Positions 18,472 through 63,947 are shown, counted from the stretch's first letter. The stretch is DNA of 64,000 bases from Alphaproteobacteria bacterium (GCA_030425805.1 JAUHZC010000002.1:159020-223019), one strand, 5' to 3'. The notes: generated by a model from the letters alone, not told the origin. Translations and numbers: made by a program.

Positions 18472-20442
18472 ATGACAATGAGATCGATATTATTTTTTAT
18501 ATTTCTTTTTACATCATACACAGCGCATAGTGCTGCTGCAGCTACCATGCCTGATGAAGTCGCTACACCTGATCAGGCGCAGGCGGTTATGCAGGCTAGA
18601 CAAAGCATAGAACAAGCTATTCAGCTCCAAGGCTACTTGATAGATTTTCATGAAGAGCTCCTTGCACTTTGCGAACAGGGAAAGGAAAGGCTTGCAGCAG
18701 AACTGGCAGGAGGAGGAGTGGGAACTGCTGAATCTCTTTCAAAAAGTATTCTCTCAGCTAAAGAGATACAGAGAAATCTGAGAGGTAAATTAACAAACCT
18801 CGATCTCCTTGTGAACCCACCCGAAGGCACTACAGAAGAACTTCTAGAAGAATATCAAGCGAAGGCAGCACTATTTTTCTCTGTCATATGTCTTGATAGC
18901 TTCCGTCATTCTCTTGCTCTTGATATTAAAGAGCTTGAAGCAAGCAGAGGAAAAAAATGGCTAGTACCAGCGTCAACCGATTCTATTGTAAATTTACACT
19001 GTATTTTTGACAATATTTTTAATTTAAAATTTAGCAAGAGGACTGTAGCAGCTTTATACACTACAAAAGCTTTATTTTACATTCTAAAAGCGAACTATTG
19101 TTATCTTCCTGAAGAATACAAAGGAAAGGAATTTGGAAAGGCCACTACTGTAAAAGAGTGGCACGACACTATAAGGCATAAAGGTTCACCAGACGAATGT
19201 CAGCGCGTACTTGTCATGCGTCAGGCTCTTTTGAAAGAATCTTTCGATAGTATTCTTAGAGACAACCCAGAGCTCGAATGCTTTCTTGAAGACAGGGATA
19301 ACGAAGTACCTCCCCCAGGAGATAAACTTCTGTTGGCATCAGCCACGTTACCTACGTCAGCAGGAAGGCTGGTCGCCAGAAAGGTAGCTCTTTCTACACA
19401 AGATCTGTTGATGAATACCCATAAAACAGCAGAAGCCTTTTTTGCAGATGAACCACAATCCCCGGAAACATACGAAGCATGGCAGGTTGCTCTTGCTGGT
19501 ACAGCCTTTGAGCTCTGTGGTTCACGCGCTGAAGGAGCATCAGGAGGAGCTCGTGCAGGAAGATTTTCAAGAGGAAAAGGAAAAGGAAGAGGGAGGGGAA
19601 AGAAAAAAGGCAAAGGTAGAAAAGGAGCAGCACCTCGACATGTTTTCGTCCTGCCAAAACTGCTTCTAGATGCAGGTTTTTTACCAGAGCGCCCAGAAGC
19701 AGAATTGGTAGAGCGCGCGGAGGCTTTCCTCATGGGAGACATTCCTCACCTCCACAAAACTCCGGAGGAGCGGGAAGCCGAGGAGGAAGCTGAAAGAGAG
19801 GCTGCATGGGCAGAGGATATGCGTGAAGCAATGCGCATAAACCAAGAATTTTGGGAAGCATGCCGAGAACGGGAAGCAGCAAGAGCTGCAGCTGCGGCAG
19901 AAGCTGACGATGAAGAAGCAGGTGGCGGTGCCGCCGCTCCCAGAGATGAGAGGGCAAGCGCAGGTGCTGGTGCCTCAGCTGCTGCTTCTGCTCCTAGAAG
20001 AAGGGGCCCTGCGGCGTCTGCCTCTGCTTCTGCTTCTGACCCAAGAAGAAGCGCGGCGGCAGCTGCCGGAGATGATGACGAAGAAGCTGATGGAGCAGAG
20101 ACCCCTGACAGCGGCGAAAAGCCTCTCTTAAGCGAAGCTCCTGGCCCTATACAAGATCTTGCATTTTTTGCCCTGGGCACCCGCACAGCATTTGTAAAAA
20201 GGCGAATTCTGGTTGGAGCACTTAAATCACTCGCAACGCATACAGGGGGGAAATTTGATCTCGGCCGTGCTGGCACACGATCTGCCTTCACTCACCCAGA
20301 CCTTAGGGAAGGTGAAAAAATACATCCCCATTTACCCCATGGTGGTGGGGAACATGCCTGTATTAGAGGGAGTGACAATATATATGCACGGTTGCTACGA
20401 AGATTTTACAAGATTGACGTCACGTTCGTCCATGGCGCCTGA
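18472..20442 (+). CDS. hypothetical secreted protein with low-complexity Ala/Glu/Arg/Gly-rich C-terminal half
   Basis: 656 aa. Signal peptide MTMRSILFFIFLFTSYTAHSAAAA. Internal GKGKGRGRGKKKGKGRKG and poly-Ala/Ser/Asp/Glu tracts. Preceded by a 150-bp AT-rich leader. Its GC-rich codon runs contrast with the flanking DNA. Confidence 0.6.
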   Translation: MTMRSILFFIFLFTSYTAHSAAAATMPDEVATPDQAQAVMQARQSIEQAIQLQGYLIDFHEELLALCEQGKERLAAELAGGGVGTAESLSKSILSAKEIQRNLRGKLTNLDLLVNPPEGTTEELLEEYQAKAALFFSVICLDSFRHSLALDIKELEASRGKKWLVPASTDSIVNLHCIFDNIFNLKFSKRTVAALYTTKALFYILKANYCYLPEEYKGKEFGKATTVKEWHDTIRHKGSPDECQRVLVMRQALLKESFDSILRDNPELECFLEDRDNEVPPPGDKLLLASATLPTSAGRLVARKVALSTQDLLMNTHKTAEAFFADEPQSPETYEAWQVALAGTAFELCGSRAEGASGGARAGRFSRGKGKGRGRGKKKGKGRKGAAPRHVFVLPKLLLDAGFLPERPEAELVERAEAFLMGDIPHLHKTPEEREAEEEAEREAAWAEDMREAMRINQEFWEACREREAARAAAAAEADDEEAGGGAAAPRDERASAGAGASAAASAPRRRGPAASASASASDPRRSAAAAAGDDDEEADGAETPDSGEKPLLSEAPGPIQDLAFFALGTRTAFVKRRILVGALKSLATHTGGKFDLGRAGTRSAFTHPDLREGEKIHPHLPHGGGEHACIRGSDNIYARLLRRFYKIDVTFVHGA

Positions 20443-20504
20443 AACGTTAAGGCTTCCTTAACTTTTATCCGAAAGCATATTCCTATAATTATAGGGAGCC
20501 CTTC

Positions 20505-61745: not shown

Positions 61746-62054
61746 CTGGTGTCTCGCAATTTCACACGTAAAGATTACCTAAAAAAAGCAGGAAAGACTA
61801 CTGCCTTTCCTTCTTTCTCTAAAATTTTATGTAACAAAGAAGCTTCAGCGCCCCTACAGCAAACCAAAACCTGCTCAGGGGATAAATTGCCATGACTTTT
61901 TTGTTACAACAAGAATCGTGTCTACGCACCACCCTATTTACCACCCTTTACTTAAACCAAATAATATAAAATTTTAAATAAATTTACTTAAACTTAATTT
62001 TATTGACAAATTTTCCATAAAAATTCATTTCTACAAAAAAACTTTTTGGTTTTC

Positions 62055-63947
62055 ATGAGCTTATTTCGGATCCTCTTTTTTGTTTGTATTTTGATGCAAA
62101 ACGGATATTCTGCCGAACCTCCCCATGACAGCTCTAGCGCTCGACATCTTGCTGCAGCAGAGACAACAGAGAGGGCTTTGGCTAGCTTACCACCTCTATC
62201 AGCTCTTGGGGGCGCCCGGCTCCCCTCTACCACCCCACACGCTCTAGCAATACGTGGAAAACGAGGGAGAGACGGGGATCCCCTTCTTAAACTCCCACAC
62301 GAGGCAAGAGATCAACGTGGGTGTGATCGCAGGAGACGCTTTACAAGGTCTCAAGGCGCTGATTCTGAAGAAGACGAAGATGGATCTCCTGATACAAACT
62401 CTGGTGGCTCTGGAGCAGAAAGTTTAGGTTCTGATGGAGAAGACAGCCCTGGCGCTGTAAGCCTTGCTAGCCATACTCGCCTTGCTCAACTTGGCATAAC
62501 AGCGGGGGGTGCACGCCATCGCCCCCGGATTGCTGCTGAGGACGATAATGAAGGCTCTCGATATACATCTGATGATGATGACGAGGAAGAGGAAGAAGAA
62601 GAAGAAGAAGAAGAAGGCAGGAGCAGCCGTAGGAGAAGGGGCATGCGCTCTTCAGCCGCTCATGCTTCAGCAGCCAGGCGTAGATATAGATTAAGAGCAG
62701 GCAGCCGCCGGCTTATCGCTGCTGCCGCTGAAGACGATGATGATGATGATGACGACTTCGGTGGCCTTGCACAACCGGGTATATCTGACGATGAAGAAGA
62801 AGAAGAAGAAGAAGAAGAGGAAGAGGGAAGATTAACCCCTCCTACTGCTGCAAGTGTTTCTTCAGCTGCCGCGCTTGGCGCAACAACAGATGAGACTCTT
62901 GTTGCCTCAGCCAAATCTTCTGATGATGTTGACTTCACAGAAACTCGAATGGTAACAGTCACCATAGATGGCAAGGAAATCAAAGAAGAAGCACATATTA
63001 TCTATGTTGTAGACTTTGAAACAAGTTATGTTGGAGGCTCCTTCTCAAAGACCCATACAATTGTACAAGTCGGAGGGTGCCTCATATATTTCTTCAAGAG
63101 CGGCAGAAAACCGCACTGCCAACGCTTGGTTTCTCGATACTGCAGGCCCTATGGTACTTTTGCTCCTGCTCACTTTGCACGCATTGCAGCAAAACTTGGC
63201 CTTACACCTGAGCAACTTGCCGAGAAGCCACTCTTTCATGAAGATTTACCTCATTTTGTAGGAATTCTAACCGGTGTCCACAAAGTTGCATGCTGGACGG
63301 GAGCAGATGCTGGATTCTACCGCGCAACGATGGCTGAGGCCGAACGACTTTTTGGGGCCGCTGTTCCTGAAATACCTGCCGAAGCTGACGCTAAAATGCG
63401 TGGAGCTTCAGACTGGATGCGACGCTATATGGAAGTGACAGCTGGAAATAAAAAGTACCGCACACCGAAAAGGCATACCCTCATTGCACGCAGGAGGGCG
63501 GAGCGTGAAGCCAGAAAGGCTAGAGCAGAAGCACGACGTGCTGCCCTTGCTGCTGAAGAAGCGGCCAAGGAGAAAGCCCGACAAGAAGCCTCTTCAGCTG
63601 CAACTGTTCCTGCGGCTGTCGCAGCCGATGAAGGGGATGACCTCACTCCTCCCCCTTCTCTACCCCGTTCCCAACCTCACCGGGAGTCCCGCCCCCCTGC
63701 TGGTGCTTTTGTAGGCATGACAGCTCCTGCTTCACAAGGAAGGGGGCGCAAAAAAGGAGGCATAGGCCTTGGTGTAGCTGCTGCAAGAGCTGGAATTAAA
63801 ACATGGGAAGATGTATTTGGATCACGTCTTACTCGACCCGATTCATTAGCAGGATTAGGAGGTGAGCTTCGTTGGCATAGCGCAGATGCAGATGCAGCAG
63901 CGACTGCAGCAATTATAGCAGGATTGGGCTACAACCCCTTTGTATAA
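62055..63947 (+). CDS. hypothetical secreted low-complexity protein with poly-Glu/poly-Asp runs and a degenerate DnaQ-like (DFETS) central domain
   Basis: ATG at 62055 (TTG at 62046 possible). Signal peptide MSLFRILFFVCILMQNGYSA. Runs EEEEEEEEEEEEGR occur twice and DDDDDDDD once. The central region YVVDFETS...VACWTGADAGF follows the pattern of exonuclease Exo I and Exo II motifs. Preceded by a 300-bp AT-rich leader. Confidence 0.55.
   Translation: MSLFRILFFVCILMQNGYSAEPPHDSSSARHLAAAETTERALASLPPLSALGGARLPSTTPHALAIRGKRGRDGDPLLKLPHEARDQRGCDRRRRFTRSQGADSEEDEDGSPDTNSGGSGAESLGSDGEDSPGAVSLASHTRLAQLGITAGGARHRPRIAAEDDNEGSRYTSDDDDEEEEEEEEEEEGRSSRRRRGMRSSAAHASAARRRYRLRAGSRRLIAAAAEDDDDDDDDFGGLAQPGISDDEEEEEEEEEEEGRLTPPTAASVSSAAALGATTDETLVASAKSSDDVDFTETRMVTVTIDGKEIKEEAHIIYVVDFETSYVGGSFSKTHTIVQVGGCLIYFFKSGRKPHCQRLVSRYCRPYGTFAPAHFARIAAKLGLTPEQLAEKPLFHEDLPHFVGILTGVHKVACWTGADAGFYRATMAEAERLFGAAVPEIPAEADAKMRGASDWMRRYMEVTAGNKKYRTPKRHTLIARRRAEREARKARAEARRAALAAEEAAKEKARQEASSAATVPAAVAADEGDDLTPPPSLPRSQPHRESRPPAGAFVGMTAPASQGRGRKKGGIGLGVAAARAGIKTWEDVFGSRLTRPDSLAGLGGELRWHSADADAAATAAIIAGLGYNPFV

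Follow-up and report, generated by a model that had tools for sequence, protein, structure and literature searches.

Five genes in a 64,000-nucleotide stretch of alphaproteobacterial DNA (the window), which we name by their first positions as the 18472, 22950, 50550, 53429 and 62055 genes, encode predicted exported proteins rich in tracts of a few amino acids. We consider it probable, at roughly 60%, that these tracts are disordered spacers of low complexity in Sec-exported orphan proteins unrelated to one another, that they arose by local duplication and slippage, and that they have been kept at the amino-acid level. An earlier note on the same DNA had proposed a paralogous set of contingency-variable proteins, whose Ser, Ala, Glu and Asp runs would change in length by slipped-strand mispairing. 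The anatomy of the genes, the codon structure of their tracts, the positions at which tracts are inserted relative to homologues, and the lack of paralogy among the proteins are direct observations.

Homopolymer runs had been ascribed to every gene, and we found them in four: S9, S10, S11, A5 and two A7 runs in the 53429 gene, two E11 runs and D8 in the 62055 gene, two S6 and two A5 runs in the 22950 gene, and two A5 runs in the 18472 gene, with the 50550 gene lacking any run of four or more identical residues. The two long Glu runs claimed for the 62055 gene are indeed present, each 11 rather than 12 residues long. Runs of at least five identical residues occur in 4/5 of the genes under study vs 0/40 other tabulated genes, and they exceed residue-shuffle expectation (p ≤ 0.003 per gene). 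All tract-bearing genes belong to the class of orphan genes with signal peptides.

In their DNA, the Ser and Ala runs are not the simple TCN and GCN repeats that had been supposed. Each run uses three to four different codons (TCA, TCC, TCT, TCG and AGT for Ser; GCA, GCG, GCC and GCT for Ala), and none contains a perfect repeat of four units or more. A scan of the whole 64-kb window for perfect microsatellites identified trinucleotide repeats of at least five units only in the 62055 gene, namely (GAA)8 twice and (GAT)5 once. All coding repeat units are multiples of 3 nt and lie in frame, and the synonymous codon variation within the runs implies that amino-acid identity has been maintained. 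Locally, the GC content of the tracts reaches 0.63 (150-nt windows), yet at third codon positions (GC3) it is 0.2–0.45, no higher than elsewhere in each gene; the GC-richness of the tracts is therefore due to positions 1 and 2 of Ala, Gly, Ser and Arg codons only. GC3 of the five genes is 0.29–0.37 (0.33) vs a mean of 0.45 in the other genes (Mann–Whitney p = 2.7e-6), which fits fast-evolving or weakly expressed genes that are native or long resident.

In the 53429 gene (53429–57028, plus strand, 1199 aa), the tracts form a linker cassette of ~100 nt that is present three times and consists of an S-run, AGQA, an A-run, QS and then (D/V)EEEE. Copies 1 and 2 are a tandem duplication of 99 nt (53552–53726, plus strand; S-run, AGQA, A7, QS, DEEEE) with 94% identity over 72 nt, while the third, diverged copy (55913–56077, plus strand; S10-ASSAEQVAG-A5-QS-VEEEE-...-S11) shares 69–84% DNA identity with copies 1 and 2. 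SSSSSSSSSAGQASSAAAAAAAQS, said to occur twice in this gene, has one exact match, accompanied by the near-identical tandem copy and the diverged one. The encoded protein begins with a signal peptide, followed by cassettes 1 and 2, a conserved Cys/His domain and a degenerate leucine-rich repeat (LRR)-like region; these are followed by cassette 3 and a C-terminal LRR-like domain, and a CaaX-like tail ends the protein.

Alignment with P0005, a homologue of the 53429 family without tracts (41–42% identity), showed both tract blocks to be clean insertions. Block 1 separates the signal peptide from the first conserved residues, and block 2 lies at the junction of the central LRR-like region with the C-terminal domain. 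Since they are absent from the corresponding domain junctions of P0005, and are gained or lost at junctions and loops, the tracts look like linkers. Among other members of the family, 8/149 proteins carry runs of at least five residues (six with S or A runs, the remaining two with G5 and E5), and these sit at the N-terminal junction or in a loop after the conserved WN.VVGDLN motif; in an AlphaFold2 model of the 53429 core, this loop (~residues 320–324) has a predicted local distance difference test score (pLDDT) below 50. Disordered linkers and loops free to grow and shrink would be placed in this way.

A further family member, P0042 (1379 aa; contig L089, 6001–10140, from read set ERR3420974), carries the tracts S8, A6, S6, S9 and S9. 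The Ser/Ala style thus recurs elsewhere in the same organism or in a co-resident relative. The 53429 cassettes have no DNA resemblance to the equally Ser/Ala-rich P0042.

The five proteins do not form the paralogous set that had been proposed. All-vs-all BLASTP, with and without SEG masking, revealed no shared domain, and when hhalign compared the profile of the 53429 family with the 18472 and 62055 proteins, probabilities stayed below 1%, so that a common non-repeat domain found no support there either. The only BLASTP match was a patch of ~40 residues around GKRGRxG[D/E] between the 22950 and 62055 proteins (E 0.002–0.016); the window holds no other in-frame copy of this motif (23087–23110 in the 22950 gene and 62256–62279 in the 62055 gene), which could be a short linear motif or resemble a nuclear localization signal. 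Tract DNA is alike only within a gene, with no similarity between different genes. With neither a shared domain nor shared tract DNA, the common 'style' of the five proteins is compositional only. Exchange of cassettes between genes or paralogues was considered and ruled out, as neither the five genes nor P0042 show the DNA similarity it would leave.

Judging from sequence features, the five open reading frames (ORFs) are probably genuine, separately transcribed genes. Each is long and uninterrupted, at 247–1199 codons: besides the 53429 gene, these are 18472–20442 (plus strand, 656 aa), 22950–23693 (minus strand, 247 aa), 50550–52493 (plus strand, 647 aa) and 62055–63947 (plus strand, 630 aa). 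N-terminal signal peptides were flagged in 5/5 by a crude heuristic that looks for a basic n-region, a hydrophobic h-region of at least 8 residues, a small-x-small cleavage site and no further transmembrane segments (Hmax 2.6–3.0; sites AHS-A, FSA-A, ALA-Q, LQA-Q and YSA-E). The AT-rich upstream leaders also held up, with a GC content of 0.23–0.33 over 138–150 nt vs ~0.40–0.50 in many other intergenic regions. Terminator-like hairpins lie directly 3′ of the 18472 (20446–20462), 53429 and 62055 (63975–63989) genes; the 22950 gene starts just past the terminator of hppA (23808–23782), which indicates a transcription unit of its own; and a Shine–Dalgarno-like GAGGAG is located 4 nt 5′ of the ATG of the 50550 gene. 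Long antisense ORFs, expected opposite all these regions, were confirmed opposite only two of the five, the 18472 and 50550 genes (173–181 aa), with none of at least 150 aa opposite the 53429 or 62055 gene. A candidate upstream motif common to the 18472 and 62055 genes, ATTTTCCAT preceded by TTG(T/A)CA (18405–18413 and 62010–62018, 45–65 nt upstream), was rejected: its five matches compare with 1.6 expected, and 5/100 shuffles reach five.

No domain match to Pfam or NCBIfam was obtained for the five proteins apart from the LRRs in the 53429 protein. By exact look-up, the products of 4/5 genes are singleton clusters at 90% identity, and the 22950 product is not in the collection; look-ups of P0003, P0004, P0005 and the partial product that we guessed for the sequence downstream of the GAA break likewise returned no record.

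Contingency loci of Haemophilus, Neisseria, Campylobacter and Mycoplasma place repeats in genes for exported, host-facing proteins, and switch expression ON and OFF by means of long perfect repeats with units that are not multiples of three, or by promoter repeats; (GAA)n tracts are known slippage substrates. The five genes resemble such loci in that their repeats lie in genes for exported, presumably host-facing proteins, but differ in that the repeats are in frame and, except for (GAA)8 and (GAT)5 of the 62055 gene, impure. As all coding repeats are in frame, slippage cannot switch any of these genes ON or OFF. Long perfect tandem repeats were found in 1/5 genes (62055), where (GAA)8 and (GAT)5 are the only tracts pure enough to slip and could plausibly generate in-frame length variants at most. 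Thus, of the earlier proposal, the part concerning secreted surface or effector proteins remains plausible, in view of the Sec-type signal peptides, orphan status, host-associated neighbourhood, LRRs and one CaaX-like tail, while slipped-strand contingency is mostly unsupported.

Assembled reads bear on the same question. Logan contigs assembled from ERR3420974 and each reported in two samples, which may derive from the same isolate, match the window at 100% identity across the 18472 gene (L001), the 50550 gene (L082) and cassettes 1 and 2 of the 53429 gene. Another contig, L083 (two samples), stops at 62612, inside the first (GAA)8 tract. None of the 31-mers of this tract recurs in the window, so that read-level length heterogeneity is possible at the contig end. 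The other ends of Logan contigs that we looked at lie in a tRNA gene, a duplicated gltX segment, a paralogue-conserved stretch, an atp gene and an intergenic region; assembly breaks are therefore frequent here, and the end of L083 is not diagnostic of a variable site. The searched metagenomes contained no close strain, and a paper search on the read-set accession ERR3420974 found nothing.

Taken together, we regard it as unlikely that the genes are length-variable contingency loci, in which slipped-strand mispairing in codon repeats would produce heritable length variants and so antigenic or functional variation. The two perfect (GAA)8 tracts with (GAT)5, the end of L083 in a tract free of repeated 31-mers, and the gain and loss of tracts between homologues speak for length variation, as might an A9 run 29–37 nt upstream of the 18472 start, which is, however, short and typical for AT-rich intergenic DNA. 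These points are set against Ser and Ala tracts without perfect repeats of four or more units, in-frame repeats that exclude phase switching, two read-set assemblies that match the window exactly even over the tandem 53429 cassettes, and contig ends that are frequent at unrelated features. An improbable alternative, though one we rate a shade higher, is that the Ser/Ala tracts serve as acceptor regions for PglL-type periplasmic O-glycosylation. Every tract carrier has a Sec-type signal peptide, and the S-run and A-run of the cassette, flanked by D/E, resemble the substrate preference of PglL (PMC12645811). Yet O-glycosylation leaves the acidic E/D tracts and the K/R/G ones unexplained, PglL is known to modify single Ser residues within short low-complexity regions rather than S9–S11 runs, and the window genes that we scanned against Pfam include none for an O-oligosaccharyltransferase or for glycan assembly.

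We give very little credence to the idea that a eukaryotic host of higher GC content, e.g. an amoeba with homopolymer-rich proteins, was the recent source of the tracts or of the whole genes. The high local GC content of the tracts, eukaryote-like elements such as LRRs and the CaaX-like tail, and the structural match of the 53429 core to a giant-virus (Yasminevirus) protein could be read in this way. However, tract GC3 does not rise above the level of the surrounding gene and falls below that of housekeeping genes, which largely refutes host-derived tracts; furthermore, the five genes have bacterial signal peptides and terminators, and the 226 clusters of the 53429 family mostly have bacterial-type signal peptides. 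Equally improbable is that the ORFs are spurious or decaying pseudogenes with low-complexity stretches as neutral junk, despite their lack of functional annotation, low GC3, rapid evolution (singleton clusters), and long antisense ORFs that show composition alone to keep frames open. Uninterrupted frames of 247–1199 codons, canonical signal peptides, terminators and one Shine–Dalgarno sequence argue against pseudogenes; the conserved 53429 core with its invariant residues and confident fold, and the synonymous variation within runs, which implies maintained amino-acid identity, argue against junk.

Several points weigh against the spacer reading that we prefer. Expression, export and disorder of the five proteins are predicted from sequence, and the signal peptides were scored by hydrophobicity and cleavage site rather than by a trained predictor. 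Sec signal peptides are also unusual for classical effectors of type IV or type I secretion systems. The label 'orphan' amounts to a weak negative for four of the proteins, since word-indexed homologue searches were swamped: no relatives were detected for the 18472, 22950 and 50550 proteins, for which such searches are unreliable, and the 62055 C-terminal region and a chimeric query made of the non-repeat parts of four proteins gave nothing or one self match, again a weak negative. To these must be added the end of L083 within (GAA)8, and the source organism itself: the GltX protein of the window is only ~55–62% identical to the alphaproteobacterial matches listed, including a Candidatus Finniella metagenome-assembled genome, so that the organism is distant from them.

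In a bolder version, which we think doubtful but would still place above the alternatives just weighed, the genes would belong to a genome-wide set of host-delivered proteins built from novel catalytic modules and a shuffled, disordered Ser/Ala/Glu linker cassette in an uncultured or little-studied symbiont. The 53429 protein would then represent a large effector family that joins a Cys/His enzyme without structural precedent to LRRs, with 226 clusters, a giant-virus homologue and a Ras-like CaaX/palmitoyl anchor for the host membrane, while the acidic and basic 62055, 22950 and 18472 proteins would be directed to the nucleus and mimic disordered chromatin proteins of eukaryotes.

The family to which the 53429 protein belongs was collected with an exhaustive phmmer search that used the tract-free core (aa 105–825) as query and returned 226 clusters at E ≤ 1e-3. 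Its members mostly begin with a bacterial-type signal peptide, followed by a domain of ~550 residues and then LRRs, and the 53429 protein follows this pattern with the invariant PS..G and ADC.E motifs ahead of its LRRs. Within the conserved N-terminal Cys/His domain (53741–55540, plus strand; delimited by alignment and AlphaFold2 model), P60, S61, C250 (ADCVET) and Y337 are invariant and H443 is >90% conserved in an 80-sequence alignment. AlphaFold2 modelled residues 105–704 with a pLDDT of 85 and a predicted template modelling score (pTM) of 0.85, placing the Cys at a helix N-terminus and the His at the start of a strand, an arrangement in the model that is reminiscent of papain-like or OTU enzymes. 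The ~550-residue domain has no relative in Pfam, NCBIfam or the PDB: family members matched LRR entries only in Pfam and NCBIfam, and a profile search of PDB sequences with the family matched solely in the LRR portion (internalins). In a viral structure library, the sole significant match of the core was an uncharacterised protein of Yasminevirus, a giant virus. The family is thus unannotated, and its modelled fold is confident yet without a known match. Metagenome scans yielded relatives of only 23–28% identity.

The 53429 protein ends in CTVC, of C-a-a-X form, with more Cys upstream (...GCGMQGAVKCCTVC; 57014–57025, plus strand). By analogy, this is a candidate tail for host prenylation or palmitoylation. 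Among 153 proteins examined, mostly of the 53429 family, the motif is neither conserved nor enriched: C-x-x-x ends occur in 4/153, with ~2 expected by chance on a rough estimate.

The 62055 protein combines an acidic/basic N-terminal half, predicted to be disordered, with a C-terminal region that contains an ER/K-rich helix. Its acidic tracts are direct repeats of ~45 nt, 210 nt apart: D4-E11 (62571–62615, plus strand), with a perfect (GAA)8 at 62592–62615, and D2-E11 (62787–62825, plus strand), with a perfect (GAA)8 at 62793–62816. Between them lies the D8 tract (62733–62756, plus strand), with (GAT)5 at 62736–62750. By eye, the C-terminal region can be read as resembling a DEDDh exonuclease (DnaQ-like), a pattern of Exo I DxE, Exo II and Exo III H-x4-D in an RNase H-like fold, as the strings VVDFETS, GADAGF and HSADAD occur in the expected order, interrupted by the ER/K-rich helix; we infer this from the strings only. 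The region has no Pfam or PDB sequence match even at E ≤ 10, single-sequence AlphaFold2 modelling reached a pLDDT of 44, and metagenome scans found no relative of the domain. The segment RRRAEREARKARAEARRAALAAEEAAKEKARQEA (63480–63600, ~aa 476–515) was modelled as a long isolated helix with a pLDDT of 80–94 without an alignment, and looks like an ER/K-type single alpha-helix.

In the 18472 protein, a signal peptide (~aa 1–20) precedes a folded-looking N-terminal region, a low-complexity region (~aa 345–560; 19504–20151, plus strand) with GKGKGRGRGKKKGKGRKG, the two A5 runs, ASASASAS and acidic patches, and a C-terminal region of ~100 aa; GC3 of the gene is 0.33. The 22950 protein is almost wholly low-complexity (35% low-entropy; GC3 0.29), with its S6 and A5 tracts at 23193–23390 (minus strand), and carries near its C-terminus the GKRGRPGE motif and basic clusters. 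The 50550 protein has a Q-rich segment, a K/E/D-rich segment, a coiled-coil-like C-terminal region and four 45-nt repeats, which encode the 15-residue unit DDRYYDDRRxPLPPR (51588–51812, plus strand).

Tracts of this kind are an ordinary feature of exported bacterial proteins. Low-complexity regions and homorepeats build up in bacterial proteins that are extracellular or belong to the outer membrane (PMC8004648); polyX and regions of biased composition cluster in exported proteins, polyA and A-rich stretches change quickly in evolution, and slippage and recombination have been proposed as origins of polyX (PMC6821194). Compared with bacterial polyX in general, the five genes stand out by an unusually high density (S9–S11, E11, D8) in orphan proteins, and the 53429 gene by re-using a defined ~100-nt linker cassette three times. 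The TRP32, TRP47, TRP75 and TRP120 proteins of Ehrlichia and Anaplasma, which are intracellular alphaproteobacteria, have highly acidic, Ser-rich, disordered repeats whose length varies among strains, and some TRP effectors act in the host nucleus (PMC10225607). In contrast to the five proteins with their N-terminal signal peptides, TRPs carry a C-terminal, non-cleaved type 1 signal and no Sec peptide, and their repeat units of ~19–80 aa differ from the homopolymers or 15–33-aa units, in few copies, of the window; we found no sequence similarity to TRPs.

Legionella AnkB has a farnesylated CVLC terminus (PMC2916131), which the CTVC tail of the 53429 protein recalls, together with a Ras-type upstream Cys and a eukaryote-like repeat domain; AnkB, however, is a small F-box/ankyrin substrate of Dot/Icm without the signal peptide that the 53429 protein possesses. 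PglL-type substrates of Neisseria, Burkholderia and Acinetobacter are Sec-exported, with Ser in disordered, Ala-rich, acidic-flanked regions (PMC12645811). The tracts share the export route, the Ser/Ala richness and the acidic flanks, but known sites are not long homopolymers. Like internalin-like and BspA-like LRR proteins (e.g. the Protochlamydia LGR, PMC2216083), the 53429 family has internalin-like LRRs and predicted secretion, to which it adds the ~550-aa Cys/His domain without relatives.

In mechanistic terms, the spacer reading would assign the window to a host-associated alphaproteobacterium, probably intracellular and of Paracaedibacter/Holosporales type, with lineage-specific Sec-exported proteins. 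Spacers would follow the signal peptide, separate folded modules or occupy surface loops, and would have arisen by local duplication, as suggested by the 99-nt tandem and the dispersed third cassette of the 53429 gene, the acidic copies of the 62055 gene and the 45-nt repeats of the 50550 gene, with short-range slippage as a probable contributor. Synonymous change would then erode the purity of the DNA repeats while the amino-acid bias is kept, and such loss of purity would leave tracts GC-rich at codon positions 1 and 2 only, with the low GC3 of the gene preserved. As to function, the spacers may act as flexible, extended, eukaryote-like linkers or interaction surfaces outside the bacterial cytoplasm, probably acting on the host. 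Disorder of the tracts, their linker role, host targeting and the mode of origin are what we infer here.

The window as a whole (GC ~45%) is chromosomal core DNA of an alphaproteobacterium, with the atp operon at 13435–18315, the nuo operon at about 33–50 kb, and further housekeeping genes including the H+-pyrophosphatase gene hppA, gltX, sppA, prs and the gene for L25. Many unannotated signal-peptide genes are interspersed among these operons. The neighbourhood also contains a 1101-aa NB-ARC and TPR (STAND-type) protein (29098–32403, plus strand) and a DUF2608 protein with a signal peptide (20998–21849, minus strand); DUF2608 and NB-ARC/TPR genes are typical of amoeba- or protist-associated bacteria and, along with the many signal-peptide orphans, offer a plausible host-association context for the five genes.

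Six more ORFs have signal-peptide-like N-termini: 1253–2926 (minus strand), 7007–8305 (plus), 11186–13333 (plus), 20505–20867 (plus), 26415–26999 (plus) and 57552–58277 (minus). None has a Pfam match on record, 20505–20867 being the one not itself scanned. Roughly one gene in four of this core-genome window encodes an exported orphan, and ten signal-peptide orphan genes have a mean GC3 of 0.35 vs 0.45 in the other 36 genes (Mann–Whitney p = 2e-5). The 3′ end of gltX is duplicated directly (57107–57387 and 58357–58637; 281 bp, 96.8% identity), ~1.25 kb from the intact gene, and the signal-peptide orphan gene 57552–58277 lies between the two copies. The flanking duplicate looks like the footprint of a gene insertion or a segmental duplication.

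Had the five genes been a contingency set, this would have meant a system of phase or antigenic variation in an endosymbiont, which the evidence does not support. Their remaining value is as a catalogue of exported, fast-evolving low-complexity orphans that are candidate host-interaction factors in a poorly known lineage. Among them, the 53429 gene is a clear case of a linker cassette duplicated within one gene, and its unannotated family, with a conserved Cys/His pair and an unmatched fold, may merit biochemical study.

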